Both the position numbers and the translations under genes were made by a program. A DNA stretch of 64,000 bases from a virus (taxonomy: Duplodnaviria > Heunggongvirae > Uroviricota > Caudoviricetes), in the IMG/VR virus record IMGVR_UViG_3300032007_000003, positions 120,029 through 184,028 of that record, one strand, 5' to 3'. This document shows, in pieces, positions 124-49,507 of the stretch. The stretch's first letter is position 1, and each line of letters starts with the position of its first letter. The notes under the pieces are model-generated. The model saw nothing but the letters and a program-made list of their open reading frames with translations. It made no database searches and was not told the origin of the DNA.

Positions 124-372
124 TTAAATTGTATTTGATGATTTTCTACCACCTACAGCACCCCACTGTTGTGGAGATTGTGCGTCTGCGAATTTCTCAG
201 TATCCATTGGATTAGCCTTCTTAGGGCTTCCGTCCTTATCAGTTATTGTAGGTTGAAGCTCAACTTTGTCCAAACCATCATATTCTGGAATTGTACTCGT
301 TCCAAAGTCTTGGTCTGTTACGCTTTCAAATAATCTTGTATACTGAGATTCATTCAAATTAATTATTTTCAT
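124..372 (-). CDS. Small putative virion/internal protein with N-terminal tag variant (MKIINLNESQYTRLFE)
   Basis: ORF track; TATTTATA on the minus strand 19 nt upstream; N-terminus resembles the tag family. Confidence 0.7.
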   Translation of the reverse strand: MKIINLNESQYTRLFESVTDQDFGTSTIPEYDGLDKVELQPTITDKDGSPKKANPMDTEKFADAQSPQQWGAVGGRKSSNTI

Positions 373-391
373 AATACATTCTTTTATTTGC

Positions 392-405
392 TATAAATAT
401 TTATA
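392..405. promoter_or_regulatory. Bidirectional late-promoter candidate: perfect palindrome TATAAATATTTATA (two back-to-back TATTTATA)
   Basis: Lies between divergent genes starting at 372(-) and 428(+), 19 and 22 nt from the ATGs. Confidence 0.7.
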
Positions 406-427
406 TTAAGCAAATAATGTATAAATA

Positions 428-2416
428 ATGGCAAATTTAAAGGTAAACAATTACAATAATCTATATTTGAGAATTAACGGAGATGAATATTGGGACTTTT
501 TCGTTAATAAGGATACTTATGGCTCATTTAAGATTAATGATGGTTTGTATGATGAATGTCTTATCTCATACATAGATTTGTCAGATGAAGAATGTTTTGA
601 CTCTGATAATTGGATATATGGTAAAAGTGGCTATACATGGGATAAATCTTTAGCACTTGGATACACCTTATATAATATAACATATACTGGAGTCGATAAC
701 GGTCTTTTTACCTATCGTAAAGATAGAATTACTAATAAAGATTTTCTAGAATTATTCCAAAATAATAAACTCATAATTGAAGAAAATGACTATAGATTAA
801 AACTTCATGCGGTGAGTGGAAACACGTTACAGTATGATTATCCACTTCATAAGGAAAACGGATATACAAAACTTAATGGTGGTTTCTATCAAGGATTTTT
901 CAAAACAGAATGTGATAAATATCAAATTTTGCCATTAGCATTTGAACATGGAGATACACTTAATTTAGAGTTTACATTGAAAAAATGTGATTTGGAGAAG
1001 GAATCTGACAAAACATTAAATGACAAATATCCAGAGAATAAAGGTATATTCTTCTATGTTGGTACTAGAGCAGAAAATAAGTGGATTTATCTCTATGATA
1101 AAGATGATGTAGATGGTCTTGAAGAATGTTATGAGTTAGGTGTAGATGACTTTGTTGAAGATGGAGAAATTGATAAAAAAGACCACATAATTGGAAACTT
1201 TTATAGTCCAAATCCCGATTTTGATGGGTATGACCCATTTGAACTTGGTGACTACACAAACTACAATTACTATGATGATGAGTTATATGCTGACGATTAT
1301 TGTGATTGGAATGACATGTACGATTATCTAGAGATAGAATCTGAGAAAAAGCCTAAGACTATAGATGAGAATGCAAAACATTCAACACTTACTTGGTGTT
1401 GTGGTGAAATAAATGAAGACGAATATATACTAAAACCTTGGTTTCGTGGTTGTGGATGTCCAATATCATATAAAAAAATAAAGAAAAAAGATGAAGACCC
1501 ATTTGACCCAAATCCATTGAAGATGGGTACTGAATTTGGTGATGATTACATATTCGATACAAGTGAGGTTATTGGACTTGATGAAGCAATAGATTATATT
1601 GAGGCAGAACTTGATATCACTGATTTTGAATATGAAACAGATAATGGATTCAGAGTTTCTGAAGGAAATCAATACTATTTCTATACTGACAATAAGTTCT
1701 TATTCTTTGATAGAACAAAAACAGGTAAAACCGTTTCAAATTGGGTTGAAGGAACACAATTTATGTATAGTGGACGTAGAAGCAAATTCAAAGGTAATTT
1801 ATTCATTTTAATGAATCGCACAAAGACTGGTTATACAGTTAATACTATTGATGAACTTCGTGACCAATCAGCAAACGAATATAATCCTTATAATGACTTA
1901 TATAACAATGCCTTAGCCTTTAGAATCACTGATAAGGGCGAAATAGGCTATAGAATGCTTGTAATGGATTGTAAAAAGGAAGGAAGGGATAAAACAAGTA
2001 TTATTGAGGGTTATTCATTTGAAAATGTAATACCTAATTGTGAATGGACAACTGTTAATGTTAAGATTATGTTTACATTTGGAAAAATGAAACTAATGTT
2101 CTATGTGAATGGTAAATTGGTTTACATTACCAAAGACCTTCCAATGCTCAATCTCAAGGCTCTTAACGAGATATACGATAAACAAGAGGGCGTGCCATAT
2201 AATATATCTCTTGGTGGTGGAACACAAGGACTTGCAGAAACAATTTTACAAAATTATATGTTGAATCCTACTAGAGTTTATCCACTTGAGAAGAACTTTG
2301 CAGGAACCTTCATCGGTTATATCTCTTCGTTCAAGATTTATAACTGCTTCATGGAACAGATGATTATCGAGCATAATTTCAAATATGAAAATAATAAATT
2401 AAAATTAATAAGCTAA
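428..2416 (+). CDS. Putative structural protein with C-terminal LamG/concanavalin-like beta sandwich
   Basis: 662 aa; C-terminal MFYVNGKLV...FIGYISSFKIYN pattern; acidic D/Y-rich middle; late motif upstream. Confidence 0.55.
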   Translation: MANLKVNNYNNLYLRINGDEYWDFFVNKDTYGSFKINDGLYDECLISYIDLSDEECFDSDNWIYGKSGYTWDKSLALGYTLYNITYTGVDNGLFTYRKDRITNKDFLELFQNNKLIIEENDYRLKLHAVSGNTLQYDYPLHKENGYTKLNGGFYQGFFKTECDKYQILPLAFEHGDTLNLEFTLKKCDLEKESDKTLNDKYPENKGIFFYVGTRAENKWIYLYDKDDVDGLEECYELGVDDFVEDGEIDKKDHIIGNFYSPNPDFDGYDPFELGDYTNYNYYDDELYADDYCDWNDMYDYLEIESEKKPKTIDENAKHSTLTWCCGEINEDEYILKPWFRGCGCPISYKKIKKKDEDPFDPNPLKMGTEFGDDYIFDTSEVIGLDEAIDYIEAELDITDFEYETDNGFRVSEGNQYYFYTDNKFLFFDRTKTGKTVSNWVEGTQFMYSGRRSKFKGNLFILMNRTKTGYTVNTIDELRDQSANEYNPYNDLYNNALAFRITDKGEIGYRMLVMDCKKEGRDKTSIIEGYSFENVIPNCEWTTVNVKIMFTFGKMKLMFYVNGKLVYITKDLPMLNLKALNEIYDKQEGVPYNISLGGGTQGLAETILQNYMLNPTRVYPLEKNFAGTFIGYISSFKIYNCFMEQMIIEHNFKYENNKLKLIS

Positions 2417-2417
2417 T

Positions 2418-3071
2418 ATGCCAAGCAAGAGTAAAGCGCAGCAGAGATTCTTCGGAATGGTAGATGCCTATAAGAAGGGTGAAATGAAGAATGCTAGCAG
2501 CAAGATAAAGAAAGCAGCAGATGGAATGCCAATGAGTGATGTCAAGGATTTTGCTGAGACAAAGCATAAGGGACTCCCAGAGAAGGTTGATGAAAATATC
2601 ATAAGATTGACCGAGAACGACCTTCACAGAATGGTGATGGAAGTGGTAAATCGAATGATAACTGAAAGGAGAGAGGGAGACCATGAATTTGTAAAGGGTA
2701 AGGATGGATATTCACAATATTACATAAATCACGGCAATAAAACAGTATCTGCTATACATGGTTATCCAAGAGCTGGAAAGAACTATGCAAAGAAACATGG
2801 TTATGAATATCATGATTGTGTGGATGAATCTGTAGAAATGGAAGATGTACCACAAGACCATATCTTCTCTGAGAAAGAAATGCAGTGGCTTTATGATAAC
2901 CAAGACAAGTTGAGTCCAATACAGCAGAAGGTTCTAAATGCTGGAATGTGGGTTCGTGCTCGTCAAGCAAATTATCATGGTTACGCAAAGAGGTGGTCAA
3001 ACATCATCCTTAAGAATGGTGAAACCTATTATTATGAAAGTAACGGAGAAATAAGAAAAACTGGAACATAA
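2418..3071 (+). CDS. DUF3008-like N-terminus plus internal IIRLTENDLHRMV tag; putative head/internal protein
   Basis: MPSKSKAQQRFFGMV...VKDFAETKHKGLPEKV matches the phage DUF3008 pattern; followed by the shared tag. Confidence 0.65.
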   Translation: MPSKSKAQQRFFGMVDAYKKGEMKNASSKIKKAADGMPMSDVKDFAETKHKGLPEKVDENIIRLTENDLHRMVMEVVNRMITERREGDHEFVKGKDGYSQYYINHGNKTVSAIHGYPRAGKNYAKKHGYEYHDCVDESVEMEDVPQDHIFSEKEMQWLYDNQDKLSPIQQKVLNAGMWVRARQANYHGYAKRWSNIILKNGETYYYESNGEIRKTGT

Positions 3072-5886: not shown

Positions 5887-8800
5887 ATGAATAATAGGCT
5901 ACAATTTAGACACCATAATGAGGTGTTCAACACTAGAGAGGACGCTATTGATTATATCAAAAGTCAAATAAGATTTGCGGAAAGTGGTCTCGCATTTGAC
6001 GATAAAACATTCGGCTATTCTTTGTTCGCAGAACCAACTGTTTTGTTGTATAAGAAGGATGAAGGTGAACTACAACCAGGCGTACTCCCAGACCCACACC
6101 TTATGTTGGTTATTGGTTCTCAGACTAATTTGGAAGAACCTGTCCAGTATTCTAATAACAGATTCTGTATTATCGATATTGATAAGACAGAACAAGAAAT
6201 CGCTGATTTACAAGAGGAATTTGAGAAGGCTATAAGGTCTCTTACTCTTATACCTTTAAGTAGTGATACATTAAACTTCTATTCTAACAAGACAGAGGAA
6301 GGCACTTATGTAAGCGGTGATGTTAAGGTTGCTGAGACTCACATCTTTGATGATGTAAGGTACAAAAATAACTTGTTGGTTACACCAGAAGGTTTGTTTA
6401 TTTATGTAAACCTTGAGTACGATAAGGAGAATGAGGAGTTCACCTTCACCGTAAGCAATGCAGATGATACTCTTTCATCAGTAACAGTTGATATTTCTGA
6501 CAATTACCTCGTTAATGGTAGATACAGTGTTCAAGACGAGTCACTTCACCTTTTCATGAAGAAGGGTGAGGAGATTGTGATTGACTGTAAGTACCTTATC
6601 GCTGAGTGGGGCGTTATTGGTGATGCTGCTAAGTCTCCAGTAATTCTTACAAAGGAAGAAGTTAAGTACGGTACTGAGGAATATTCAAGACTTGAGCCTT
6701 GGCAAGACGTACTTAAGGCTAACGTTAGAATCAAGGATGAGGAGTTTGACCCACAGACTGGTAAACCTCTCCCATTGGACAAGGATAAATCTACAAACAT
6801 CTTACAGAGAACACAAGATGGTAGATACTTGTTCGTTGATGGCGTTGCTTCTAATATCATATATTGGCAGAATGGTGAACGTACAAACGTTAAGGAGGTA
6901 CTTGATGAGCTTTCAAACATTAAACTTTCAACCGATAATGACAATATCTTGACAGAGAAGACAGACGGTTTCTTCGCTTCATCTAAGTTGGAGTATGTAT
7001 CTAAGGATAACAAACTTATATTCAAGACTTCTGGACAGAATGGAGAGAAGAAGACAGAAATCCAACTTAATAGTGTTGAACTTTTTGAACATATTTACTA
7101 TGACCCAACTAAGGAGGCTCTTATTGTAACTTATAAAGACAATAAGGGAGAAACTCAGTTCGTTGAAATTCCAATTGGTGAAATGATTCGTGATTGGGAA
7201 TGGGAACCTCAGAATGAAGGACATAACGTTAAGATTGTTAAGATAAGAAAAGTTAGTGGAAATGATAAGGTTTCTGCTGATGCAAAAATTTATCAAGACC
7301 CAGATAACATCTTGGTTGACAAGAACCATGAGTTGTTTGTAAAGGGTACTTCTGATAATATCAGACATGGAGAAGATTCAAACGTTAAGAAAGAAATAGA
7401 TACCCTTCACGAGATAGATGCAGCTCTTGATAACAAGATTAATAATGAGACAGCTAGAGCAAAGCAAGCAGAACAGACTCTTGATAACAAGATTGACCAA
7501 GAGATTGCTGATAGAACATCTGAAATTCAGAGACTTGATGATACTCTTGGAAGTGGTTTCACAACTGATATCCACGAGACTGTTACCTATAAGCTCAATG
7601 AAGAAATTGAAGACAGAATCGCTGATGTTAATGCAGAAGAGGCTCGTGCAAAGGAAGAGGAACTAAGAATAGACACAACAATCGGTAGTGGCTTCTCAAC
7701 AGATGCACACGAGACTGTTACCTATAAATTCAACCAGTTGCAAGACCAAGTTAACTCAGAGGCACAGAAGCTTCAGAATGAGATTAACCGTTCAATAGCA
7801 AAGGATATTGAACATGATGGAAGACTCGATGCAATCGATGCTGAAATTGGCGAAGGGTTCGGTCCACGTAACACCGTAAGAGATGAAATTGAAAATTTAC
7901 AGAGTGAAATCGACTTTGTAAGTGCAGATACATCAATGAGGTTGACAGACGTTATCAATGAGGACGAATCAATTGACGTTGAAACTAGAAACGATGCTAA
8001 TGGTAAACCAACCGTGAAGGTTGTTAAAGTTAATCTTAGTACCGAGGTAGAGGATGAAAGAAAGAATATCATTAAGCTTAACAGCGATGGATTATTTGCA
8101 AATGTCGATTTGTCATATGAAAAGACTGCAAATAAACTTATCTTCCACACATCAAACGGTGAGCCAGACAAGGAAATCCAGCTTGAGAGTATGTCTTCAA
8201 TTATAAGCATTGAATACAATCCGTCTAAGGAAGCTATCGTTATTACTTATATGACTAATGGTCATGAAATTAAGACGGTTGAAATTCCAGTTGGTGACTT
8301 GATTAACGAGTGGAGAGTTGAGGATGGACACCCACACGCAGTTCAACTTGAAAAGGTAAGAATTTCAAGTGGTACAAGTGAGCAAGATATTCTTAAGGCT
8401 TCTGTAATCATAACAGATGACCATGATGATAATATCTTGGTAATGGATGACGGTGCTCTTTATGTATCTGGACAAGGTATTACTAATAACAAGGCTGAGA
8501 TAGATGCTTTGAAGGAAAGAATGACCACAGCAGAGGATGATATTGATGCACTTGAGAATGGTCTTAGAGAAGAGGCTAGCGCTAGAACAATTGCAGACGA
8601 AGCTCTTGGTAGAAGAATTGACCAAGAAATCGAGAATAGAATTGCTGATGTCAATGAAGAGGAAGAGAGAGCTAAGGATGCAGAACTTGCACTTTCCAAC
8701 AAGATTGATACCGATGTTCTTGCAGAAAAGAATCGTGCAATCAGTGCAGAGACAAGTCTTGACACTAAGATTGACCAAGAGATTGCTGATAGAGAGGCAG

Positions 8801-12914: not shown

Positions 12915-13276
12915 TGAAAAGTATGTTGTCGGATATTTGTTTGGCATGGTTGATAATGGTAGTGATAAACTATGTGTATCTCTATGTAGCAACTAAGTTT
13001 GGAATTTTCAAAGAGTTCACAAAGTGGCTAATGACTGATGATAGTTATTGGTTTACTCGACCAAGGCAAGTTCCGTTTTGGTGGTTCTTCGTTCCACCAT
13101 ATTGCATGATGTTTTCAATTGCTATAGTGGCATTTTTACTATATAGGTTGATTCTTAAACCATTATATAGTATCACTATCTACCCCATATCCAAATTAGT
13201 GGTTTGGATTGGTGATTTCATCTTTAAACCAATTAAAAGAAACATCTTCTACTCTGAACTAGAAAATTCTCATTGA
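12914..13276 (+). CDS. Hypothetical membrane protein
   Basis: Two to three hydrophobic segments; start overlaps the upstream stop. Confidence 0.6.
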   Translation: MKSMLSDICLAWLIMVVINYVYLYVATKFGIFKEFTKWLMTDDSYWFTRPRQVPFWWFFVPPYCMMFSIAIVAFLLYRLILKPLYSITIYPISKLVVWIGDFIFKPIKRNIFYSELENSH

Positions 13277-14304
13277 AGATAAACCTCATCAATTTGCTGG
13301 GCATTACTTAAGTGCCTAGCAATTTCTTTATATCCACCTTTCTGATACAAAGAAGATGGGTCTTCATCCCCTTCAACTGGTATGTATCTCACCTTACCAT
13401 ATAATCTTCCATGATTAAGGAATTTATAGATTTCCTTTACAGTGCTAAAGGCATCGGCATCAAGGAACACGTTTACATTACCATTCGCCTTTGTGATTAA
13501 GTCCCAATATAGCTTATATTCTTTATTGAGTGATTTACCCAATAATGGTACTGAATTAGGTACTACGATGTGGTCAAAAGTTCCCTCTACCAATGTAATA
13601 TCTGCATCCCATTGTATTTTATTCTCGTTAAATATGATTTCCTTTTTCTTTGCAAGTGGGTTATCATATTTAACCCTTTCAAATCCTTCTTTCTTTGGTA
13701 AATAATCTCTACCAACCCAGTAGTTAAGTTCATCGTATTCGTTATACGATGGTATAATTATCCTATATGAAGATTTCTTCCATTTCTTTTCTTCTTCTTT
13801 CTCAGTGAATCCTATTCCATATTGATTAATTATATTCCATCCAATACCTCTTTCATTGAGATACCTCATAGCACCTTTATTATAATATTTACCTTCCTTA
13901 AATGGTTTGAAACTAGGTGGAAATTTAAGGTCTTCCTTTTCAATAATGGAAGTATCGATATTGAAGTCGTTTGATGAGAAATTAAGTTTATATAATTCAC
14001 TATCTCTGATTGTACGAATAATATCCTTATACTCTTGTAGTAAGTTATCATTGCCATACATTCTAATAAGTTTTACAATAGTACCACTCATGTGCTCATC
14101 CATTGATGAGCAAGACCAACAATTAAATAATTGAGATTTGATATTGAGTTCTAAATTAAATTTTCTAGCTTCTGTTATTCCATTTCTTTCAATACATTTT
14201 GGACAAGGAAATTGATATTGAAAATTGTCATTATCAAATCCACTTTTTGATTCCCCTAGAATCAATACTAATATGTCGTAAATTTTTTTAATTTCGTCAA
14301 TCAT
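13270..14304 (-). CDS. DNA primase (DnaG/gp61-like)
   Basis: Zn finger CPKC...FNCWSC; YLNERGI; RIIIPSY...YWVGR; TOPRIM LVEGTFD...FLDADA; DPSSL. Confidence 0.88.
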   Translation of the reverse strand: MIDEIKKIYDILVLILGESKSGFDNDNFQYQFPCPKCIERNGITEARKFNLELNIKSQLFNCWSCSSMDEHMSGTIVKLIRMYGNDNLLQEYKDIIRTIRDSELYKLNFSSNDFNIDTSIIEKEDLKFPPSFKPFKEGKYYNKGAMRYLNERGIGWNIINQYGIGFTEKEEEKKWKKSSYRIIIPSYNEYDELNYWVGRDYLPKKEGFERVKYDNPLAKKKEIIFNENKIQWDADITLVEGTFDHIVVPNSVPLLGKSLNKEYKLYWDLITKANGNVNVFLDADAFSTVKEIYKFLNHGRLYGKVRYIPVEGDEDPSSLYQKGGYKEIARHLSNAQQIDEVYLQ

Positions 14305-15694
14305 TTTTTTTAATTTCTTTTAATAATCTCTCTTTTGTTTTGATTAAATTTTTGTTTTTAATATCTAAATGTGTATATTCTAATAACTTGATATTATGTT
14401 CTTCACAATATTTCTTTTTAATTTTGTCTCTTATTTGATTTAATTCATATTGTTTTTGCAGCGTTTTGGTATCTTTTCCACCAAAGTTAATTGGTTTAAA
14501 ATGTTGTTCTCCTTGACATTCTATTATTATATTTTCTTTTGGTAAATAAAAATCAGGTCTAAGTGCGCTTTTATATTTTAATCCATCAAATGTTTTCTTT
14601 TCTTCAAAATCTATATTATTTTTGGTTAGTAACAATCTAACTTCATTTTCTAAACGATAGTTTTGTTTACACTTCGGACAGCCACTTCCTTGTATGTGAG
14701 AATGAGGAGTAGTGAAAAAAGAGCCGTGTTCTATTCCGTTTGAATCTTTCTTATGACATATTATTTCTATCTTAGTTCTATTATTTTTATACTCAGATTT
14801 AGAATAGTCATATAATTCACCGTGTTTTTCTTTTGACCTTTTAATAAATTCTTCTGTGTTTATTGGTTGATTATTTGCACATTTTGGGCATCCACTACCA
14901 TCTAAATGACTTGATGGCGTTTGCCAAAATTCACCGTGTTTTGGACAAATTATACAAACTTTATCTAAGCTATGTTTATATTTAACTTTTGAATAATCGT
15001 ATTTATCACCATGAATATTTTTACTTTCTTCTATAAATTGTTCTGTAGTTTTGGTTAATATTTTTTTTATTTCTTCTAAACCACATTTGGGACATCCATT
15101 ACCTTGCAGATGACTTGATGGTAACTGCCAGAAGTCGCCATGAATAGGACAAGTTATACAAACTTTTCCGTCTTCTCTTCTTTCTTCAAGATTGGTTTTT
15201 TCATATGAAAATCTATTATCGCCAAATATTTCTTTTGAGCGTTTTATAAAATCATTTGTGGAGATACTTCTTAATTTGCTTATTTTTTCACAAGCACATT
15301 TAGGGCATCCCATACCTTTTAAATGATTATCTGCTTGCTGAATAAAAGAACCATGAATTGGGCATATTATCTCTACGTTGTATCTGTTTCCTATGTATTT
15401 GGTTTTAGAATAATTATATTTGTTATTATGTATTTTGTTGGACTTATTTATAAACCACTCTGTTGTTTGTGTTTTATCTTGTCCAATTTTTTCAAAAGTA
15501 CATTTTGGACATCCGTGACCAAGTAATACATTATTAGGAGTTTTCCAGAATTCACCATGAATTGGACAAATTATACACACTCTACCCTTTTCGTCTCTAT
15601 TATTCACATCAGCTTTTGACAAATCATATTTTGCGTTATATAATTCATTTACTCTTTTGATAAATTCTTCGTTTGTTAATTTTTTACCTTTCAT
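14297..15694 (-). mobile_element. Free-standing homing endonuclease: five C-P-x-H-G...GCPKC zinc repeats plus C-terminal PD-(D/E)xK/Vsr-like nuclease
   Basis: Repeats KYDYSK...IICPIHGEFWQ...HL.G.GCPKC; C-terminal RPDFYLP...IECQGEQH; AT-rich; overlaps the primase start. Confidence 0.8.
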
Positions 15695-15810: not shown

Positions 15811-15848
15811 TAATTGGAGATATTTATAAGAAATAAATTTTAGAAAAT

Positions 15849-16118
15849 ATGGCAAAGAAAATCAAGGATAGTGACATTTTAAAGGCTATGGCGATGCATC
15901 TTGATGAAGATTCAGTTGTATTCGGAGCGAATGGTCATTATGCTGTTGGAGCATATTACGATATCACCAAAGTAAGTAGTGTATTTGGTGATAAGGACTA
16001 TAATAGCCAAGACACAATAGATGCTGCTGATTCAACTGAGGCAGCAACAAAATATCGTACAGACGATGATAAAATGATTGAAGGCTTCCAAAAAGCTGAA
16101 TGGTTAAAGGAGTTTTAA
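15849..16118 (+). CDS. Hypothetical late protein
   Basis: ORF track; TATTTATA at 15821-15828. Confidence 0.65.
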   Translation: MAKKIKDSDILKAMAMHLDEDSVVFGANGHYAVGAYYDITKVSSVFGDKDYNSQDTIDAADSTEAATKYRTDDDKMIEGFQKAEWLKEF

Positions 16119-16122
16119 TACT

Positions 16123-17547
16123 ATGAGAAGAGTTGCATCATCAAGTGAATTTTTTGATATATTGGATAAGATTGGTAATGGAAAGTTCGTTACCATCGGT
16201 TATGTGACTGGAGCAAACTTAGATGTTCCAACTGTCAGTAGAAGAAATCCAGCTACTAATAGAATGAAGAAGTATCCAGATTATACTGTATTTGGCGGTG
16301 AAGAAGAAATTGGAGCTTTAGTTAAGATTACTAGTTATAACATGAGGTATCTTAACAGAACCACCGTTGGTCAAAAATATGGTAAATTCAAAGCCTCAGC
16401 TAATGATATCAGAATCAATTTTGGTATTGACCCAATAGCTGATAAGGTTGGTTACAAACAAGGTACGAATTGGAGTCCAAATGGTCCAGAAATCTATAAT
16501 GGTCAAAATGCGGATTTGCAATCTCATTCTTATAATCCTCAAAACATATTTGGAGTTAAGCCAAAAGGTGTTGTTTATGCAATTAACAAGGAGGGTCATA
16601 TTATTAAGGAGCTTTCTCCTGAACAAGTTAGACCTTATCTTAAAGCAAAACGTGAAATTGATGGAGTTGCCGCATTGAGAAAAATGGGTGCAGAAGAGGA
16701 TAGAATTCAAGACTATATTAATCAGATTAACAATTTGAAGTTTAAGTATATCAATTTTGAGTCGAATTCAATTCTTTGGATTGCTGCAACAATTAATGGC
16801 GAAAAGATAGTTTACATTAACGATAACTTATATAGAGCAGTTGATGGTATTGATATAAATCCACAAGATTTCAGAGCAATTGCAAGAGAAAGATATCAAA
16901 TAGATTTGAATGATTTACAAGAAATGACTAAGAAAACTATGGGTAAAAACATATTAAGACTAACTGAGACTGATTTGCATAGAATGGTTATAGAGTCAGC
17001 AAAAAGAGTACTAAAGGAAATGGGTAGATATGATTCTGACCTTGATGCTGATGAAATCTATGGTGATAGGGCTGATAGAGAATATAGACAATCTATGGCA
17101 GACAAACTACATCAAGAAGAATGGGAAATGAGAAATCTCAGACTAAGGCAGAAATATCCTGGGAAATCCCCTGAATGGTATGAGGCAATGATTGACACAT
17201 TTTATGAGAGTAAAAAATCAAAGAAAACCATTAAGGAGGATTGGAAACAAGCACCTTGGGAACAAGCAGACCCAATAGAAGACCAAGGTGAATATGGTGT
17301 AGAATCTTTCAAGAACAATCAAAACTATTCTCACTTTGCAGTAAACAAGGCAACAAATAAGATAGTTAATGGTTGGGATTATAGTGAGTATGACCCAAGC
17401 GAATTGAGACAGTTTAAGAAAGACTATTTTGATGCCGATATGATTGATTATGGCTTTAATCCTAAAGATTATAAAATTGTTACTAGTAAGTTCCTTATTC
17501 GCCAAGGGATTAACCCAGATGATAATAACAATTGGGCAAACAGTTAA
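16123..17547 (+). CDS. Multi-module putative internal head protein with internal ILRLTETDLHRMVIESAKRVLKE tag
   Basis: 474 aa; tag at ~aa 277-300; further L/I-x-E sites (LQE, IKE) between modules. Confidence 0.6.
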   Translation: MRRVASSSEFFDILDKIGNGKFVTIGYVTGANLDVPTVSRRNPATNRMKKYPDYTVFGGEEEIGALVKITSYNMRYLNRTTVGQKYGKFKASANDIRINFGIDPIADKVGYKQGTNWSPNGPEIYNGQNADLQSHSYNPQNIFGVKPKGVVYAINKEGHIIKELSPEQVRPYLKAKREIDGVAALRKMGAEEDRIQDYINQINNLKFKYINFESNSILWIAATINGEKIVYINDNLYRAVDGIDINPQDFRAIARERYQIDLNDLQEMTKKTMGKNILRLTETDLHRMVIESAKRVLKEMGRYDSDLDADEIYGDRADREYRQSMADKLHQEEWEMRNLRLRQKYPGKSPEWYEAMIDTFYESKKSKKTIKEDWKQAPWEQADPIEDQGEYGVESFKNNQNYSHFAVNKATNKIVNGWDYSEYDPSELRQFKKDYFDADMIDYGFNPKDYKIVTSKFLIRQGINPDDNNNWANS

Positions 17548-27835: not shown

Positions 27836-27869
27836 GTTATTATGATATTTATATAAAAAATAATGTTAT

Positions 27870-28079
27870 ATGATTTCAGAGAGCAGAATAAGAGAGATTA
27901 TCAATGAGGAAATAAGCAAGACTGAGGTTGAATCGATTGTATCCAACCGTCTATCTTCTGCCTATAATTCAAGGGACTTTAAGAAAGCGGTTAAGGATAT
28001 AACGGCAGATGTAATTGAAGACTTATTCCGCACCTTGTGGAATCGTAGCAGCACATGGAAGGGAGGAGTTACTAGATGA
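27870..28079 (+). CDS. Small late protein with tag-like N-terminus (MISESRIREIINEE)
   Basis: TATTTATA at 27846. Confidence 0.65.
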   Translation: MISESRIREIINEEISKTEVESIVSNRLSSAYNSRDFKKAVKDITADVIEDLFRTLWNRSSTWKGGVTR

Positions 28080-28471
28080 AGTTAATACACATCAATGAGG
28101 CAGTATTCAACAGACTCCTAGAGGATAATAGAAGACCACCTTTTCAAGACTTTTACGACAGCGTTGTTGCGTTCATAGAGGGAATGCGCAAAGACCCTAT
28201 AAGAACAGTCCCAAACGAGCTTTTAAAAGGTTGTGGACTTCATAATGGAGAGCTTAGAAAGAAACTTTATGACTATGGGATAATCACCAAGGATGAGAGA
28301 ATTGATGAACCATATGACGAAACAACTGGTAGCCAACAATCTCGTTATTACGTAACATACGATTGGTCTGAGAGAATTAAGAAGGAAATGAAGGATAAGG
28401 AGAGGATTGGGAATCCAATGAAAAAAGCATTTATAAGGAAACTATATAATGATTTCTTTAATATAAAATAA
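28076..28471 (+). CDS. Late protein with tag variant (MKLIHINEAVFNRLLE)
   Basis: ORF track; ATGA overlap with the upstream gene. Confidence 0.65.
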   Translation: MKLIHINEAVFNRLLEDNRRPPFQDFYDSVVAFIEGMRKDPIRTVPNELLKGCGLHNGELRKKLYDYGIITKDERIDEPYDETTGSQQSRYYVTYDWSERIKKEMKDKERIGNPMKKAFIRKLYNDFFNIK

Positions 28472-28693: not shown

Positions 28694-29098
28694 ATGAATA
28701 AACCTATTCAATTAACAGAGCAAGACCTTCATATGTTGGTGGAGGACGCAGTAAGAGCATACCTTACAGAGAATGGTATGGACGAAGGATGGTTTGGTGA
28801 CAAGTGGAATCAAACTAAGACAGCAGCTAATACCATGTTCCAAGGAAACAAAGGAACTGGTTTGAAACAGAAATTCAATAATGCTAGACAGAATTGGAAC
28901 ACCCAAGGCCAGTTGAATGGATTGAACAATTTAAGACAGCAACTTGAGCAGTTCATCGATACTGGACAGCTAAATCCACAGATGACAATTGCGCAACTTA
29001 TTGGTGGTAAGTACAATGGTAACAAGTTTGGTAGAATGAGTGGTATGATTGGAAATAGACAATCTCAGATTTCTAAAAGAGGTGGTCAATACAACTAA
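28694..29098 (+). CDS. Putative internal head protein (IQLTEQDLHMLVEDAVRAYLTE tag; G/N/Q-rich)
   Basis: Shared tag at the N-terminus followed by MDEGW. Confidence 0.7.
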   Translation: MNKPIQLTEQDLHMLVEDAVRAYLTENGMDEGWFGDKWNQTKTAANTMFQGNKGTGLKQKFNNARQNWNTQGQLNGLNNLRQQLEQFIDTGQLNPQMTIAQLIGGKYNGNKFGRMSGMIGNRQSQISKRGGQYN

Positions 29099-29547: not shown

Positions 29548-29623
29548 TATTAAGTGTTAAATTATGTTTAATAAAAATTTTGGTATAAGTGTGATATTTA
29601 TATTTAAATAAATGTCTTTAGAT

Positions 29624-29965
29624 ATGAACAAGATAATTAGACTTACAGAGAGTGACCTACATAATATTGTAAAGGAAGCTGTATATAGAATATTGAAAGA
29701 AGATGGTGAAATTGGTGGTGGCGGTGCTACAAACTGTGTTGGTATCAACGTAGGTGGTGCTGCTGGACAAGCTAAGAACCATATTGATGCACCTGCTTTT
29801 GGTGGGAAAAATAAAAAAAAAGTAGGAGGAAACGCATTTAGTGAGCCAATTATGAGACAAGCTCATAATCTTGGTGATGTAACTAAAGCCCCAGCAAATC
29901 AAGTTGATATGAAGCCAGCATTGGATAGAACTCCTGGTTTCTCAATGGGCACACGCAAGAAGTAG
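29624..29965 (+). CDS. Putative internal head protein (MNKIIRLTESDLHNIVKEAVYRILKE tag; Gly-rich)
   Basis: Canonical tag; TATTTATA at 29595. Confidence 0.7.
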   Translation: MNKIIRLTESDLHNIVKEAVYRILKEDGEIGGGGATNCVGINVGGAAGQAKNHIDAPAFGGKNKKKVGGNAFSEPIMRQAHNLGDVTKAPANQVDMKPALDRTPGFSMGTRKK

Positions 29966-30133: not shown

Positions 30134-30140
30134 TAATATT

Positions 30141-30962
30141 ATGATAGCAAAAATTAACGTAGGCGATTTGAGAAGAGTTATCAAGGAAAGTCAAAACGAG
30201 TTTAAGCCAACAGTTTTTGGAATGGATAAGTCGAAAGAAATCAATGACAAGGCTTACAGTGATATCAAGAAGGAAACTGAGAAGTATGATGGTGGTCTCA
30301 CCAAAGAGAAAAAACAAATTGGTGGTGGCATCTCAGCTACTGACAACAAAGGTATGCACGATTTGACTTATGATAACATTAATAAGCCTTTCCAAGACAG
30401 AGTTAAGTCTCAGATGAAAGGTTATCCATCAAAGGATGCCGAAACCAAACACAAGGATGATGAGTTTGGGAATGCAACATTTGACAATGATGGAAATATT
30501 TATAATGCAGCTAAAGACCATGCTAAAGCTGTTAAGGACGGTAAGGACGCAGCAGTTGAAATTGGTCTAACTGGTAGTAAACTTAATAAAACTGACGTAG
30601 AAAAACAAAGAAAAACAATGGGAGAATCAAAGAAAATCAAAATGCTTACCTTTAAGAATACACAATTTATTTCTGAGAATCATATGCTGACAAGAATTCC
30701 AGATGAATATAAGACAGAGGGTAATAGATTTGTGATGAAAGACAGTGCCGATAATCAATATCTTGTTGAATGGCATGCTAAAGAGCCAATGGTTACTAAG
30801 AAACCAAATATGACCTTGGTAAATGAACAGAAGGAAAGAATGAAACAGCTTTGGGGTTACAAATGCGCAGAGGCTAAGACTTCAACTTCTAGTTTTAGAG
30901 TACAAGAGGACAAGGGTTTCGCAGACATGGTAAACAAGGCTAGAAAGTTAATGAAGGATTAA
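30141..30962 (+). CDS. Putative head/internal protein (MIAKINVGDLRRVIKES tag variant)
   Basis: ORF track; several I/L/V-x-E sites (IKE, ISE, VNE). Confidence 0.65.
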   Translation: MIAKINVGDLRRVIKESQNEFKPTVFGMDKSKEINDKAYSDIKKETEKYDGGLTKEKKQIGGGISATDNKGMHDLTYDNINKPFQDRVKSQMKGYPSKDAETKHKDDEFGNATFDNDGNIYNAAKDHAKAVKDGKDAAVEIGLTGSKLNKTDVEKQRKTMGESKKIKMLTFKNTQFISENHMLTRIPDEYKTEGNRFVMKDSADNQYLVEWHAKEPMVTKKPNMTLVNEQKERMKQLWGYKCAEAKTSTSSFRVQEDKGFADMVNKARKLMKD

Positions 30963-42214: not shown

Positions 42215-42286
42215 GTAAATTTAACGTTATTTGTTTAATAATTTTCATTAACTCATTATATTTATATTAGAAATACACAGAATATA

Positions 42287-42745
42287 ATGAAGAAAATAAT
42301 TAGATTAACTGAGTCAGATTTGCATAATCTTGTCCAACGTAGTGTGCTGAGAATACTGCATGAACAAGATAACAACTTGCTTTTGCAAAATATCGCCCAA
42401 TCCATTGCAAGCCAAGGACAACTAGATGTCGTGGCTGGAGAGAATGAGGGTGAGTTTAGTTTGCAAGGTGGGAACTATGCATATATAACATATAATGTGG
42501 AATGTGACCCATACATGCGACAAGGTATGAGAAGTAATTCTTACGATGTTCCAGATGACGAGGATGAAATAATTGACAAACCAACTGTGGAAGTTGGAAG
42601 CATTGAATTCTGTGATGGTGGAGGAGAAGGGTGTATTCAAATTCACGACAATGGAATTGTAAAGAAAGCTTTGGAAAGTGTTATCAATGTCGATTATACA
42701 GATTTTGATGTTCCAAGCGAAGACGATTATTATTCCGAATATTAA
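42287..42745 (+). CDS. Putative internal head protein (MKKIIRLTESDLHNLVQRSVLRILHE tag; acidic cargo)
   Basis: Canonical tag; TATTTATA at 42259. Confidence 0.7.
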   Translation: MKKIIRLTESDLHNLVQRSVLRILHEQDNNLLLQNIAQSIASQGQLDVVAGENEGEFSLQGGNYAYITYNVECDPYMRQGMRSNSYDVPDDEDEIIDKPTVEVGSIEFCDGGGEGCIQIHDNGIVKKALESVINVDYTDFDVPSEDDYYSEY

Positions 42746-44425: not shown

Positions 44426-44884
44426 ATGACTGCAACAGAAGTATTTTTATTGTTTCTCAAGAAAGACCTCTCCATGAATGAATATTTGTTTTTTATGCAT
44501 CATTTATCAAGGAGACGAAGAGGTGGTAAAGTGAAACCAGTATTAGGTAAAGGATTTGTAGAGGATTATCTATCTAGGACAAATAGAACTCTTGGGGGTT
44601 TTATGACGAGGTTATTTGTTCTTTGTCCTAATTTGTTGAGATATGGGGCAGACAACTCAACCTATAAGAAAATTTATGATAGTATAAGACCTCATTATTT
44701 TGGTAGGTTTTACGTACCTAAAGAGGATGACGTTTATTACTTCAAAACTCATGTTAATTCAAAGTATGTGTCAGCTTACCGTGAAAGATGGCATCATTTT
44801 TTGTATAAACACATAAGGGGTGAAAAGAAGCTTAACAGTCCATTTAAAGAAGGTGAAACATACAGTTACGAATATATTGAATAA
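44426..44884 (+). CDS. Tandem paralog family member 1
   Basis: MTATEVFLLFLK...FVEDYL.R..R.L..FMTRLF.L.PNL...NSPFKEGE.Y. Confidence 0.7.
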   Translation: MTATEVFLLFLKKDLSMNEYLFFMHHLSRRRRGGKVKPVLGKGFVEDYLSRTNRTLGGFMTRLFVLCPNLLRYGADNSTYKKIYDSIRPHYFGRFYVPKEDDVYYFKTHVNSKYVSAYRERWHHFLYKHIRGEKKLNSPFKEGETYSYEYIE

Positions 44885-45396
44885 TGACAGCAACACAAGT
44901 ATTATTTCTTTTCTTTAAAGAATGTTGCACCATTGATGAAATGAGATTCTTCAAATACATTATATTGAAGAATCATGGCAATAAATATTTTAAGAAAAGA
45001 CCACTATATACTCCAACTTTTGTAGAAGATTATCTAGCTAGGAATGAAAGGGCATTGAATAATTACATGACAAGGTTATTTATTCTTGCCCCTAATTTAA
45101 GGCATAATAGACATAAAAATCCTAGATGGCATTGTATTTGGAGAGAATTTGATGCCAAGAATAAAGGAAAGACTAGAACATTTAGAGTAAAGGATTTTTT
45201 TGGAAATTATACTGGAGAAGTAAAACCATATACCGTTACGTTTCGACCATATAATTGTGGTATGTATATTAACTATTACAAGAGAAAATGGAATAAGTTT
45301 TTAAGAGATAATATAGAGAGTGATAAGAAATTTAATAGCCCATTCAAAAAGGGTGAATGTTACGATTTTAAATTAAAAACAAATGACACCGACTGA
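44884..45396 (+). CDS. Tandem paralog family member 2
   Basis: MTATQVLFLFFK...FVEDYLARNER.L..YMTRLF.L.PNL...NSPFKKGE.Y. Confidence 0.7.
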   Translation: MTATQVLFLFFKECCTIDEMRFFKYIILKNHGNKYFKKRPLYTPTFVEDYLARNERALNNYMTRLFILAPNLRHNRHKNPRWHCIWREFDAKNKGKTRTFRVKDFFGNYTGEVKPYTVTFRPYNCGMYINYYKRKWNKFLRDNIESDKKFNSPFKKGECYDFKLKTNDTD

Positions 45397-45892
45397 GATA
45401 TTCAAGTTGTTTTTAAAACATGGGGTTACTCCAAACGAGAGATTAGCATTGATGACTGAGATACGTACCAATATACGTAATAAGAAGAATCTTTATATAT
45501 GGAGAAAAAAATTTTATTCTGAAAAAGAAAAAGAAATATTTGAAATAGAGAATTCTTTTGCAGAGAGAATTATGTATAATACCTTATATATATCGAATCA
45601 TCTTGGGAGATATGGTGAGTCATCTACTTGTACGTCTCTATCATCTTTTATGAAGTATCTTTTGTATTACATGCCATCAATAATTGGTACACCAAAAAAT
45701 AAAAACAGATTTCTTGAAAGAGAGTTGATTGACATTCCAGAGAAAGTTGGCTATAGAAGGTATTGGGAAACTAGATTGATAAAGAAGTGGCACAATTTTC
45801 TCAAGGAAAATATTGCAAGATATGATAGGTATGTCACTCCTTGGGGGTATTCATACAATAAATGGATGTTAAGGAATGGAGTTGAACTATAA
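45383..45892 (+). CDS. Tandem paralog family member 3 (divergent)
   Basis: MTPTEIFKLFLK...FMKYLLY..P...KKWHNFLKENI. Confidence 0.65.
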   Translation: MTPTEIFKLFLKHGVTPNERLALMTEIRTNIRNKKNLYIWRKKFYSEKEKEIFEIENSFAERIMYNTLYISNHLGRYGESSTCTSLSSFMKYLLYYMPSIIGTPKNKNRFLERELIDIPEKVGYRRYWETRLIKKWHNFLKENIARYDRYVTPWGYSYNKWMLRNGVEL

Positions 45893-45903
45893 TATACGTT
45901 TAC

Positions 45904-46302
45904 ATGGGTAAAATTATTGTTTATAATTCTCACATTGAAGACCATACAAATGGAAGCTGTTGTAATTTCTATATCGGTAGAGGTAGCCCATTAGGAAACC
46001 CATTTACTCATAATGGTGTTAGGAGCATATTTAAAACTATGACGTTTAAGACTAGGGAACAAGCTATTGAAGCCTATGAAAAGTATTTCGATGAAGTCTA
46101 TGGAAAGGATGAATGGTTTACTAGGGCTTTCGATGAAATATATGAACACTACAAGAATGGCGAGGATATATACCTCCAATGTTTCTGCAAGCCAAAGGCA
46201 TGTCATGGTGATGTGATTGCCGAGAAATTACAGAGGAAGCTTATCAAGGAAAAAATGGAGGAAAGGAAGAATGAAAAGATTTCCAATGAAAAGAAAGACT
46301 AA
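45904..46302 (+). CDS. DUF4326 domain protein
   Basis: YIGRGSPLGNPF; TREQAIEAY; LQCFCKPKACHGDVI. Confidence 0.8.
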   Translation: MGKIIVYNSHIEDHTNGSCCNFYIGRGSPLGNPFTHNGVRSIFKTMTFKTREQAIEAYEKYFDEVYGKDEWFTRAFDEIYEHYKNGEDIYLQCFCKPKACHGDVIAEKLQRKLIKEKMEERKNEKISNEKKD

Positions 46303-46444
46303 ATATGCGTTTAGGTCTTATTCATTTCCAGGTGAAAGGGATTATAAGTCTGATAGACAGCATATGTGGAGCAAATGGAGAAAAAAGTATATGAGGCTTT
46401 TCATCAAGCGAGAAGCTGAAGAAGAAATAAGCGAAGAAACGTAA
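46271..46444 (+). CDS. Small basic protein (MKRFPMKRK...)
   Basis: ATG at 46271 in the frame of ORF 46217; terminator follows (46443-46474). Confidence 0.5.
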   Translation: MKRFPMKRKTKYAFRSYSFPGERDYKSDRQHMWSKWRKKYMRLFIKREAEEEISEET

Positions 46445-46510
46445 AGCAACAATAGAAATATTGCTGCTTTTTTTGTAACCATAATATTTATAGTAAATAA
46501 ATAAATTAAT

Positions 46511-47659
46511 ATGGTTTTATCTGAAGATATACAATCTCTATTCAGAACTGTAAGAACGATGCTTGGTGCTCCATTGAGAAAGGTTCAGCTTGAGGATGAG
46601 CAGCTTTGTGACCTTCTAGATGTAGCAATCGGTGATTATTCTGAGAAGGTTCAGAATTGGGTATTAGAGACACAATGGCTTAATATACAGAATAAGAATG
46701 CTATACAGTTTCAAAATGCTAACGAATTGGCATACGCTATGACTGTTAGAACTATGGACTGGTCACGTGATTACTCATATTGGTTCTCTCGTGAGGTTGG
46801 TTTGCAGCAGAGAGGTAACTACGAGCTTAAGAAGGATTTCTTTAGAATCGAAAAGGGAAAGCAAGTGTATGTCATTCCAGCAGGACGTGAGATTAATAAG
46901 GTAATGTATATAACCCCATCCACTACCAAGGCAGCATTGTATGGAAACTTAGGTACACTTGATACAGGTATCGGTGGAGGTTTCGGACAGTATGGTAATA
47001 TGGGTAATGGTATGGGTATCACTGGATTCTATGTCGGTTCTGCATATGATACAGCGTTGATGTCAGTTGATTTGAAATATAAGAACTCTCTATTGAGAGG
47101 TGACTTGGCTTATAAGGTAACTGCTGGTCCAGATGGTACACACCTTGTACACTTGATGTCAGTTCCTGGTTCTCCAAATATGGTTGGCGGTATTGCTGCT
47201 GATGATACTTGGGGATGGAATCGTTATGCTAACTGCATCTGTTGGTACACCTATTATGATGTTAATGGTGCAGAAGATGCAGACCTTTGTATGTTGGAGA
47301 ATAAGGATGATGTGATTATAACACCAGACCAAGTGCCATTGGATAAGATGAAGTACGAACTCATGAACAATCCAACACAGCAGATTATAAGACGTTTGCT
47401 TGTGGCAGAAGCAAAAATATTGCTTGGTATCATAAGAGGTACATTCAGTGGAGCAGTAAAGATTCCAGAGGCTGAAATGCAGATGGACTATAACATGTTG
47501 CTTCAGCAAGGCGAAAAGGAGAAGGAAACTGTGCTTAACGAGATAAAGGAACGTTTGGATAGAATGACCCCTTGGAACTTGATGGAAAAGCAGAGTACCA
47601 TGAATGACCAACTTATTAAGGTATTAAAGAATAAGCCACTAGGCTTTTATGTAAGATAA
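46511..47659 (+). CDS. Head-tail connector/neck protein (T4 gp13-like)
   Basis: VRTMLGAP..KVQLEDEQL N-terminus; AEAKILLGIIRGTF.G...P...LLQQGEKEK C-terminus; TATTTATA at 46485. Confidence 0.75.
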   Translation: MVLSEDIQSLFRTVRTMLGAPLRKVQLEDEQLCDLLDVAIGDYSEKVQNWVLETQWLNIQNKNAIQFQNANELAYAMTVRTMDWSRDYSYWFSREVGLQQRGNYELKKDFFRIEKGKQVYVIPAGREINKVMYITPSTTKAALYGNLGTLDTGIGGGFGQYGNMGNGMGITGFYVGSAYDTALMSVDLKYKNSLLRGDLAYKVTAGPDGTHLVHLMSVPGSPNMVGGIAADDTWGWNRYANCICWYTYYDVNGAEDADLCMLENKDDVIITPDQVPLDKMKYELMNNPTQQIIRRLLVAEAKILLGIIRGTFSGAVKIPEAEMQMDYNMLLQQGEKEKETVLNEIKERLDRMTPWNLMEKQSTMNDQLIKVLKNKPLGFYVR

Positions 47660-47719: not shown

Positions 47720-47729
47720 AAAAAAAGAC

Positions 47730-47909
47730 ATGGCATTATATAGAGAACAGTTAGAGCCTTACATGTACTCTGAGAAGAGACGTAAGCGCAAGTCCTATAA
47801 GTGGGCTAAGAAACAGATGAACAAGTGGCTTCGCATCAAGAACAAGAAGATTGGCGAAGACGATTCTAGTGGACACGGTAAAAAACAGTGGTATGGGCAT
47901 GAGTGGTAA
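47730..47909 (+). CDS. Small basic protein (59 aa, MALYREQLEPY...), not in the ORF track
   Basis: First ATG after cassette 4; K/R/W-rich. Confidence 0.55.
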   Translation: MALYREQLEPYMYSEKRRKRKSYKWAKKQMNKWLRIKNKKIGEDDSSGHGKKQWYGHEW

Positions 47910-47928
47910 CAAATTCAAACCAACCAAT

Positions 47929-48186
47929 ATGAAATGTACTACTTTTAAGTATATTGGTGAGAATGGCGAGAAGGTTGAGAAACCAAAGAAGCAGTTTAAT
48001 AGCGAGGAAGAAGCGTTTAAGCAAGCTTGCTATTACAATGCCTATGGCAACACCATACATAAGTTATCGACTTACAAGTGTTGGTCTTGTGGAAAATGGC
48101 ACATTGGGAGGACACCACATGTTCTAACTCAAGAGGATAGAGAGAAATATAAGCAAAGACTTGCAGAGTTAAGTAAGAATAGATAA
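47929..48186 (+). CDS. Small zinc-finger protein (YKCxxCxxWHIG), paralog of 41231
   Basis: KKQFNSEEEA...YKCWSCGKWHIG; ATG at 47929. Confidence 0.65.
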   Translation: MKCTTFKYIGENGEKVEKPKKQFNSEEEAFKQACYYNAYGNTIHKLSTYKCWSCGKWHIGRTPHVLTQEDREKYKQRLAELSKNR

Positions 48187-48250
48187 AATTATGAAAGAGA
48201 AGAAGTATGGGGATGGATGGTACTTGAGGAAATAAAAAAAGGCTAAGAAA

Positions 48251-49507
48251 CTAAATCTTAGCCTTTTTTCTTTTTCCTAATGGTTTTTGGGTTTTTGCCC
48301 TCATATTGTCAATTTTATCTGACATAGTATTCAAACGTTTTTGATTCTTCTGAGAATTATATGATTTGATTTCACTTGGGCTAGCCCATCCGTTTTGAAT
48401 AGCTAACTGAATGGTCTTATCAATCTCATCTTTTTTGAATAGATGTTTTAAACCATTGGCTGCTGTTAAACCATGATACTTAACAAAGATAGTATATGGT
48501 TTTCCAGTTTTATTACGGTTAAAGCATACTCTACACAAGTCACAGTGTGGCTCTCCCTCGCCACAAGGACATTTATAGAAAAATTTACCATTATATTCAC
48601 CAAGTATAGGTTGGAAATTATTATCTACTTGGTCTCCACCTTGTAATGAGTCATAGAGATTATCATTTACAGCATGGAATCTTCTTTTTGGTTCTTCACC
48701 TATATTAATCCCTTCATGTGATGGAAGAACTGAGAAATTCTCTGGTCTATTTGAGAAATCTAGATTTCTTGCAGTATAAGCATGTACTTTTATTCCGTAT
48801 TTAGCACCAACTTTTTTAGCGAATTTACTCCAAAGGTCAACTGATAATTGGCAAGGGAAATCTCCAGCTTCATTAAGTCTTATATCAGTTATTTTTGGTT
48901 CTTCTGAAATGTCTTTTACTGTTTGTTCTACCTCTGGAGTTATTACCTTTCCTCTTCTTCTCAAAGAATCTATTGTCTGAGTATATATGTTCTTTGCTGC
49001 TGCATTACCAATTTGGATATACATTTCAACGAGGCTGAAATAATCTCTCATTGGCTTCTTGTTACCTTTTTGGTATTTTCTTAATAGTTCAGTATTCATC
49101 AAGTCATTTTGAAGATTTCTGTTTCTTGAATTTGGATACTGGTTTTCACCTCTTTGTGCATAACAAGCTCCATTCTTAATTGTACAGATACCAAGGTAGT
49201 ATGAAGGGCAAGCCAAAGCAGATGTAATATTAATCATAAGAACATTCTGAGGTACTTTCGCATTACCAGCTAAAGCAATTACTCTTGGAACATCGAGTTT
49301 TTCTTCTCCGTATATTTCAGCTTTGCTTTTAGTCAATTCATCTAAATCATTGAAGGTTTCTTGGAATAGTTCTTGCTGTTTCTTTTTAATCGCAGCCCAT
49401 AGAACATTAAGATTCTCCCCATTTATTTTTTGGTCATTATAATATGGGTTCTCATCCTCCATCAATTTTAGTTTATTATATTGATTTTCTGTAATATTTA
49501 CTCTCAT
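48251..49507 (-). CDS. Gp88-like Cys-rich protein with tag-like N-terminus (MRVNITENQYNKL)
   Basis: GNAK; SALACP...C....CYA; IRLNEAGDF; HAYTAR; CPC...CDLCRVC; ATG at 49507; TATTTAT on the minus strand at 49527-49533. Confidence 0.65.
   Translation of the reverse strand: MRVNITENQYNKLKLMEDENPYYNDQKINGENLNVLWAAIKKKQQELFQETFNDLDELTKSKAEIYGEEKLDVPRVIALAGNAKVPQNVLMINITSALACPSYYLGICTIKNGACYAQRGENQYPNSRNRNLQNDLMNTELLRKYQKGNKKPMRDYFSLVEMYIQIGNAAAKNIYTQTIDSLRRRGKVITPEVEQTVKDISEEPKITDIRLNEAGDFPCQLSVDLWSKFAKKVGAKYGIKVHAYTARNLDFSNRPENFSVLPSHEGINIGEEPKRRFHAVNDNLYDSLQGGDQVDNNFQPILGEYNGKFFYKCPCGEGEPHCDLCRVCFNRNKTGKPYTIFVKYHGLTAANGLKHLFKKDEIDKTIQLAIQNGWASPSEIKSYNSQKNQKRLNTMSDKIDNMRAKTQKPLGKRKKAKI

Follow-up and report, generated by a model that had tools for sequence, protein, structure and literature searches.

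The 64,000-nucleotide stretch of DNA analysed here, referred to throughout as the window, comprises bases 120029-184028 of a single 412,435-bp IMG/VR record (34% G+C, standard code), the genome of an uncultured T4-like gut megaphage. Replication genes (primase, SbcC-like, exonuclease, DnaB-like helicase and NrdD) are mixed with late units in the window, and the genome encodes its own T4-type major capsid protein (Pfam Gp23, PF07068; 214 bits), a prohead protease of the T4 gp21 family (Peptidase_S77, PF03420; 82.8 bits), a large terminase and a portal. Attached to otherwise dissimilar products of the late units are copies of a conserved 26-residue peptide, here called the type-1 leader or tag. 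An earlier reading of the window (the original prediction) had proposed that such a tag loads diverse cargo into the prohead, where it would be cut by the prohead protease, for ejection into the host.

The type-1 consensus is M-K-K-I-I-R-L-T-E-S-D-L-H-x-I-V-K-E-S-V-x-R-I-L-x-E, and the logo of 155 unique copies reads M-K-K-I-I-R-L-T-E-S-D-L-H-R-I-V-K-E-S-V-N/K-R-I-L-K-E. A hidden Markov model (HMM) made from the genome's own copies was scanned against 6,045 six-frame open reading frames (ORFs) of the 412,435-bp genome and returned 11 copies in 10 ORFs, five of these copies in the window. Scores were 42-61 bits per copy (E 1e-13 to 1e-25) and the next ORF reached 9 bits (E 0.3), so the recurrence of the tag lies far beyond chance. 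Three copies in the window are N-terminal, namely MNKIIRLTESDLHNIVKEAVYRILKE at 29624..29701 (+), opening a gene (29624-29965) for a 113-aa protein with a basic, Gly/Lys-rich disordered body (pI 9.7); MNKPIQLTEQDLHMLVEDAVRAYLTE at 28694..28771 (+), opening a gene (28694-29098) for a 134-aa protein with a basic body (pI 10.3); and the copy at 42287..42364 (+), opening a gene (42287-42745) for a 152-aa protein with an acidic, folded alpha/beta body. The two others are internal, at 2595..2666 (+) in gene 2418-3071 and at 16948..17019 (+) in gene 16123-17547. These are the five close copies named by the original prediction, all of which lay where it had placed them. Outside the window, type-1 copies are found at genome positions 40383, 47953, 48723(-) and 114357, together with two internal copies in a 661-aa protein at 387803.

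The tag opens with MKKIIRLT, a short extended segment, and continues as an amphipathic helix, ESDLHxIVKESVxRILKE, that two putative gp21-type cutting motifs, L-T-E and (I/L)-x-E, enclose. All 155 of the 155 copies keep the first Glu. In the last motif, P3 is Leu or Ile in 146/155 copies, P2 is variable and P1 is Glu in 144/155; an (I/L)-x-E thus closes the tag in 93% of the 155 copies, a match at the sequence level with the end motif originally proposed, and the residue beyond the final Glu is already random. In DNA alignments the codons of conserved residues vary freely (TCA, AGT or AGC for Ser; CTT, TTA, CTA or TTG for Leu) while the peptide is kept, and the level under selection is therefore the peptide, not DNA or RNA.

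Two upstream motifs dominate the genome: TA(nn)TTTG(CA), which heads about 55% of genes, and ATATTTAT(A/T), whose units hold 29% of genes. TA(nn)TTTG is the promoter type known from Bacteroidota. The second motif lies mostly about 20-30 nt upstream of start codons (23-49 nt for six head genes) and is found ahead of the genes for terminase, portal, p765, protease, p482 and capsid; because it precedes these six head genes we read it as a putative late promoter, which would be the counterpart of T4's TATAAATA. All 10 type-1 genes lie in units headed by ATATTTAT(A/T), which has a chance of about 4e-6 given the 29% of all genes so placed, and none lies behind TAnnTTTG. In the window the motif was located at 29595..29602 (+; TATTTATA), heading the unit 29624-30962; at 42259..42266 (+), heading gene 42287; at 27846..27853 (+), heading the unit 27870-29098; at 398..405 (+), heading the unit 428-3071 with the internal tag of gene 2418; and at 15821..15828 (+), heading the unit 15849-17547 with the internal tag of gene 16123. 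The claim that tagged genes occupy units headed by TATTTAT(A), with no host-type promoter, therefore holds for every one of them against 29% genome-wide, which suggests, from the promoter motif rather than from transcripts, that they are expressed late alongside the head genes. The split between TA(nn)TTTGCA and ATATTTAT(A/T) would also be useful for a genome-wide temporal map. Separately, a 241-aa protein encoded at window 24830-25555 has an N-terminal part that resembles sigma-70 region 2 by eye (...ELLEANLKFVFDIA); it could be a sigma factor of the phage, which would bear on the late-promoter motif.

The internal copies mark joints between modules. In gene 2418-3071 the tag stands between an N-terminal DUF3008 domain (window 2418-2594; PF11450, E 2e-6; phrog_28725, E 1e-18) and a C-terminal body which occurs as a separate N-tagged gene in three related loci (L011, L061 and L018; 46-49% identity over about 160 residues). 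DUF3008 itself recurs in many phage proteins that have no assigned function. In gene 16123-17547 (474 aa) the tag lies at the joint of a basic N-terminal and an acidic C-terminal module, the latter being found in an N-tagged protein of L061. The 661-aa late protein (P0145, genome 387803-389788) begins with a Dps-like four-helix domain (weak matches to DUF5856 and phrog_858), followed by two tagged modules, and locus L060 holds a stand-alone Dps-like gene and then two N-tagged genes. Since the downstream modules stand alone as N-tagged genes in relatives, we regard the internal tags as fusion joints, and as judged from these gene architectures the tag is retained when a fusion makes it internal; the earlier view of the internal copies as parts of multi-module proteins thus gains circumstantial support. 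The top-scoring database proteins often carry two or three tags each. The 661-aa protein heads a large family of 580-740-aa proteins with two to three tags, and relatives have shorter versions of its Dps-like domain that lack tags.

A pattern scan of IMG/VR for further carriers recovered 182 tag-encoding stretches, of which 76 distinct loci from related phages were retained. The 30 largest of the tag-bearing records that were checked are complete genomes or fragments (19-100% complete), the complete members among them measuring about 300-412 kb. The 76 loci contain 143 unique tags, in addition to the 11 copies of the genome itself. Directly at the protein start, after M(N)KK, stand 119 of the 143 (83%), and in 14 others a Met lies 1-6 residues ahead of the tag; the median carrier measures 134 aa. 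With the tag masked, BLAST sorts the bodies into 75 clusters or more. Searches of the tagged proteins against Pfam and PHROGs gave no family that covers the tag and none common to the bodies, and the Pfam scan of the 143 carriers returned six marginal-to-modest matches only, with no enzyme or effector domain among them. Matches to AAA_lid_3 and YqbF_HeH were sums of sub-threshold scores with no significant single stretch, and were rejected as generic cap-plus-helix resemblance. The description of the carriers as otherwise unrelated proteins is upheld by this lack of a common family and of matches between bodies, and the position at the start Met together with the number of body clusters lends circumstantial support to a portable N-terminal tag on unrelated late proteins.

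At a larger scale, a full profile search of 1.84 billion representative proteins from public metagenomes matched 5,403 clusters (50% identity level) at E<=0.001 and 190 at E<=1e-10, although some of the weakest matches may be generic helical repeats, and a word-based database search gave at least 1,355 tag proteins. Among 50,697 deposited phage genomes, a tblastn search with the tag (29 and 44 aa) found no match, and megablast with 18 kb of the window had a sole match of 387 bp, to an unannotated human-faecal phage contig. A full-text literature search on the motif letters and on capsid targeting in huge phages found no description of the tag. The leader family is real, very large and previously undescribed. 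T4-like 'Jug' gut phages of Bacteroides and Phocaeicola, 360-402 kb in size, were described in 2026 in a report that does not mention the leader (PMC12880540); they may represent the same clade as the tag-bearing phages or its sister.

Two tagged proteins were modelled with AlphaFold2 from 52-sequence alignments, and in both the residues 1-8 were predicted to be extended, with a helix from residue 9. In the 113-aa protein (29624) the tag helix (residues 9-29, pLDDT 75-86) is the sole confident element, the body being predicted at pLDDT of about 45-55. In the 152-aa protein (42287) the alpha/beta body reaches pLDDT 84-92, and the tag is modelled as a projecting helix (pLDDT about 60) which does not pack on the domain. 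These models suggest that the leader is structurally independent of the bodies that bear it. A Foldseek search with the folded 152-aa protein gave no match below E 0.001 in PDB and BFVD, and a search of the ESM Atlas no usable one; the tag profile itself matched only designed helical repeat proteins in PDB.

A second kind of leader occurs in the window, with the consensus MK-I-x-[IL]-N-E-[SA]-Q-[FY]-x-x-[RK]-L-[FL]-E (INESQ type, or type 2). It opens the genes 124-372 (-; leader MKIINLNESQYTRLFE, 325..372) and 28076-28471 (+; MKLIHINEAVFNRLLE, 28076..28123) and, in a weaker form, gene 48251-49507 (-; MRVNITENQYNKLKLME, 49457..49507, the copy at 49507(-) that reads MRVNITENQYNKL). In the 418-aa product of the last of these, a GP88 domain was recognised (PF17338, E 7e-9), and DUF7227 matched weakly. 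The original prediction had taken these leaders for a second subtype of the same tag. They are unscored by the type-1 HMM, but type 2 is a real, separate and looser N-terminal leader class: a type-2 HMM finds five copies in the genome, and N-terminal copies recur on other bodies in related phages. All five type-2 genes lie in ATATTTAT(A/T)-headed units, as an operon walk shows for four and the true start of 49507 for the fifth, the motifs being at 392..399 (-) for gene 124-372, at 49526..49533 (-) for gene 48251-49507 and, for gene 28076, at the head of the unit it shares with type-1 gene 28694. Gene 30141-30962 (+), also listed as a carrier, begins with a short variant (MIAKINVGDLRRVIKE, 30141..30188) that resembles the tag helix core and ends in I-K-E; it is kept in 13 orthologues, yet receives no score from the type-1 HMM.

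Three of the 10 type-1 genes sit in the head module of the genome, where a tagged 183-aa gene is followed by terminase, portal, p765, p144 and a tagged 109-aa gene, and then, on the other strand, by a tagged 132-aa gene, an HNH endonuclease and the protease; next comes p482, an acidic coiled-coil protein, and then the capsid protein. About 20 related loci share the arrangement portal, p765, one to five tagged genes with p144, protease, acidic scaffold-like p482 and capsid protein, and in T4 the order is 20 (portal), 67, 68, 21 (protease), 22 (scaffold) and 23 (capsid); the slot between portal and protease that holds the tagged genes matches the position of the T4 core genes 67 and 68. The 109-aa protein of this slot consists of the leader helix and an acidic tail (net charge -24). 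Untagged but conserved, p144 (genome 47483-47917) and p765 (45085-47382) always lie between portal and protease beside the tagged genes, and are candidate core components or tag receptors. Over the whole set the bodies vary, from strongly acidic (gp67-like) to basic (pI 9.7-10.3, like T4 internal proteins), many being disordered and some folded. The genome's own S77 protease (genome 49746-50447, -) begins with MKKAELEIIKE, and its capsid protein has LIYE↓A at residue 60. The N-terminus of the scaffold-like p482 (ESAVKALLGEAVRDTYAKLLSE) looks similar to the tag by eye and is unscored by the HMM, and we make no claim for it.

Several neighbouring genes were also recorded. A large HNH/homing-type endonuclease gene (phrog_559; window 14297-15694, -) abuts the DNA primase gene (13270-14304), and a second one (phrog_559; genome 48707-49678, -) is that of the head module, between the prohead protease gene and a tagged gene. 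By eye, window genes 21014-21976 and 58253-59143 have a similar 'KYDYSKV...CPIHGEFW' N-terminus to these HNH genes. The 1,735-aa product of window 5887-11094, whose gene shares the late-gene neighbourhood of gene 2418, has local identity of 31-39% to Vibrio phage tail-fibre proteins and to the crAss-like VOG7718, and is likely a tail fibre. Three tandem paralogous genes at window 44426-45892 encode proteins of 152-170 aa with the N-termini MTATEVFLLFLK, MTATQVLFLFFK and MTPTEIFKLFLK.

Our preferred interpretation, to which we assign a probability of roughly 55%, is that the tag is a targeting propeptide for the capsid or prohead core, cut by a gp21-type protease. The steps that we infer are docking, cleavage and the fate or release of the bodies. 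Late in infection, the tag helix would dock each protein into the assembling scaffolding core or onto the inner face of the shell; the S77 prohead protease would then cut after the Glu residues of the tag, which would free the body inside the head or let acidic fragments leave, and fused multi-module proteins would be cut at their internal tags. The tagged set would be a mix of acidic core proteins like gp67 and gp68, basic proteins like the T4 internal proteins, and a few folded proteins. We favour such a longer T4-like system because of the N-terminal position and portability of the tag, its sharp (I/L)-x-E end and the second, invariant L-T-E; because of the late context, the S77 protease and the slot between portal and protease; and because the leader seems structurally independent and is kept at fusion joints. 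Part of the original prediction has circumstantial support in this form, namely the portable late tag and its gp21-type end motif, which are now joined by the protease, the core-gene slot and the fusion joints. Its ejected-cargo part does not: the bodies of the 143 carriers have no recognisable enzyme or effector domains and many of them resemble core or internal proteins, so that ejection of diverse cargo into the host is unsupported, and they are no less likely to serve as structural, core or internal proteins than as effectors.

A number of observations weigh against this interpretation. Encapsidation and cleavage are inferred from sequence, and the tag HMM gave at most 0.2 bits on T4 gp67, gp68, gp21, gp22, gp23, gp24 and Alt (NC_000866; a comparison that did not include IPI-III). 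The tag is 2.5 times the length of the 10-residue capsid-targeting sequence (CTS) of T4 and far more conserved. The (I/L)-x-E motif carries little information, amphipathic helices often close with it, and the tag profile also matches designed helical repeat proteins; in the AlphaFold2 model of the 152-aa protein, moreover, the helix runs unbroken across the second putative cut site. Many internal copies consist of the helix only, without the IIRLT part, which would also suit an uncut repeat that binds multivalently. In the window the tagged genes lie mostly among replication genes and not in the head module, and with five window copies outside the slot between portal and protease, the gp67/gp68-like position holds only for the head-module subset. 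Peptidase_S77 was found in six of seven complete tag-bearing records; since every carrier comes from a single clade in which the protease is present regardless, we do not count this co-occurrence as independent evidence.

Some of these observations would suit a helix that is never removed. The tag could be a permanent docking or oligomerisation helix for a common virion or assembly partner (inner shell, portal, core or an outer decoration site), its terminal Glu being structural. It is indeed an idealised amphipathic helix, its helix-only internal repeats are spaced about 90-130 residues apart in multi-copy proteins as in a multivalent binder, and its conservation tracks the very conserved capsid protein, not the protease or the scaffold-like protein. 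We nevertheless consider a permanent helix unlikely, as conservation breaks off precisely at the (I/L)-x-E in 93% of copies, each of the two invariant residues is the Glu of an L-x-E motif, tagged genes adjoin the protease gene and, in T4, the closest model, such leaders are cut. Less probable still is that the carriers form one fast-diverging paralogue family of late non-virion proteins, acting in host takeover, regulation or anti-defence, whose conserved N-terminal helix binds a common cytoplasmic target of host or phage origin, with no part for capsid loading. Small, hydrophilic and variable bodies, hyperplastic gene clusters like those of arms-race genes and the location of most window copies outside the head module would agree with such a family; its strict link to the late promoter, with no copy behind a host-type one, and the position between portal and protease conserved across relatives would not. 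The bodies also differ in architecture (a folded alpha/beta domain, a disordered Gly-rich chain, a DUF3008 fusion, WG repeats), and shuffling of the tag is therefore favoured over divergence of a single fold.

Two further explanations place the function of the tag in nucleic acids, and both fare worse. That the tag is an HeH/SAP-like nucleic-acid-binding motif, and its carriers DNA-condensing or DNA-associated proteins, would be in keeping with the weak YqbF_HeH and AAA_lid_3 matches of multi-tag proteins, with some basic bodies and with the one carrier that has a Dps-like domain (DUF5856/phrog_858). We hold it to be very improbable: those matches span one helix only, without a significant single stretch, a conserved second helix is lacking as conservation ends after the tag, the tag has a low net charge (about +3), and strongly acidic bodies are numerous. 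A signal at the level of DNA or RNA, such as a translation-initiation region or the boundary of a recombination cassette, might be expected of a sequence that usually lies at the extreme 5' end of genes shuffled between phages. The synonymous variation described above largely refutes this explanation, internal copies far from any start are conserved as well, and we have rejected it as scarcely credible.

If the tag is indeed a prohead-targeting propeptide, a single 26-residue peptide would assign 10-15 genes in each genome a likely location in the head interior together with a processing pathway, and the same assignment would reach more than 5,000 unannotated protein clusters of a giant T4-like gut-phage clade, possibly including the 'Jug' phages. 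Megaphages would then share the capsid-targeting principle of T4, in a longer form with two sites that is also used internally, and gene fusion and fission at tag boundaries would be explained; given its length and conservation, the tag would be a ready-made, specific handle for packaging proteins into such capsids. A broader version, which we put forward tentatively and with less confidence than the propeptide itself, is that an excisable docking helix with two flanking protease sites is the general head-cargo grammar of this very abundant 300-412 kb clade. Any tagged module, whether N-terminal or at an internal joint, would then be loaded into the prohead and cut free, genes could be joined, divided or exchanged at the tag, and the unannotated clusters, thousands in number, would be virion-internal proteins.

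The closest known system is that of T4, in which an N-terminal 10-residue CTS loads unrelated internal proteins (IPI, IPII, IPIII and Alt) into the scaffolding core (Mullaney & Black 1996; reviews PMC9026906, PMC3012670) and is removed by gp21, which cuts after L/I-x-E (PMC9026906). In the T4 sequences (NC_000866) the cut site of gp23 is FLTE↓A, gp24 starts with MAKINELLRE and Alt with MELITELFDE. Like the CTS, the tag is an N-terminal leader common to unrelated, fast-varying late proteins, ends in (L/I)-x-E, and belongs to hyperplastic genes of a phage with a gp21-family protease and T4-type head genes. Unlike the CTS, it has 26 residues instead of 10, with two invariant Glu motifs around a helix and far stronger conservation; it is also found at internal joints, amounts to 10-15 copies per genome and thousands of clusters, and has a putative function; and no similarity in sequence links it to the T4 head proteins compared, a set that leaves the IP genes aside. 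The T4 prohead core proteins gp67 and gp68, which gp21 cuts into fragments at several L/I-x-E sites, are likewise small proteins encoded between the portal and protease genes, with an N-terminal helix and an acidic tail; they share no sequence homology with the tagged proteins, and the corresponding slot here holds one to five tagged genes and the untagged 144-aa protein.

Processing after Glu is also known from the giant phages phiKZ, 201phi2-1 and SPN3US, in which gp21-like proteases are reported to cut the propeptides of many head and inner-body proteins, with redundant sites inside the propeptides (PMC5694885, PMC7411985, PMC10052503). Those propeptides are long, lack one conserved portable peptide and belong to phages of a different lineage. 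The cargo-loading peptides of encapsulins, short conserved peptides which address unrelated cargo to the inside of an HK97-fold shell, are usually C-terminal and uncleaved and serve bacterial compartments instead of phage heads; the resemblance is one of analogy only. Most probably the leader represents a new version, longer and with two sites, of the T4 principle of capsid targeting by a propeptide.

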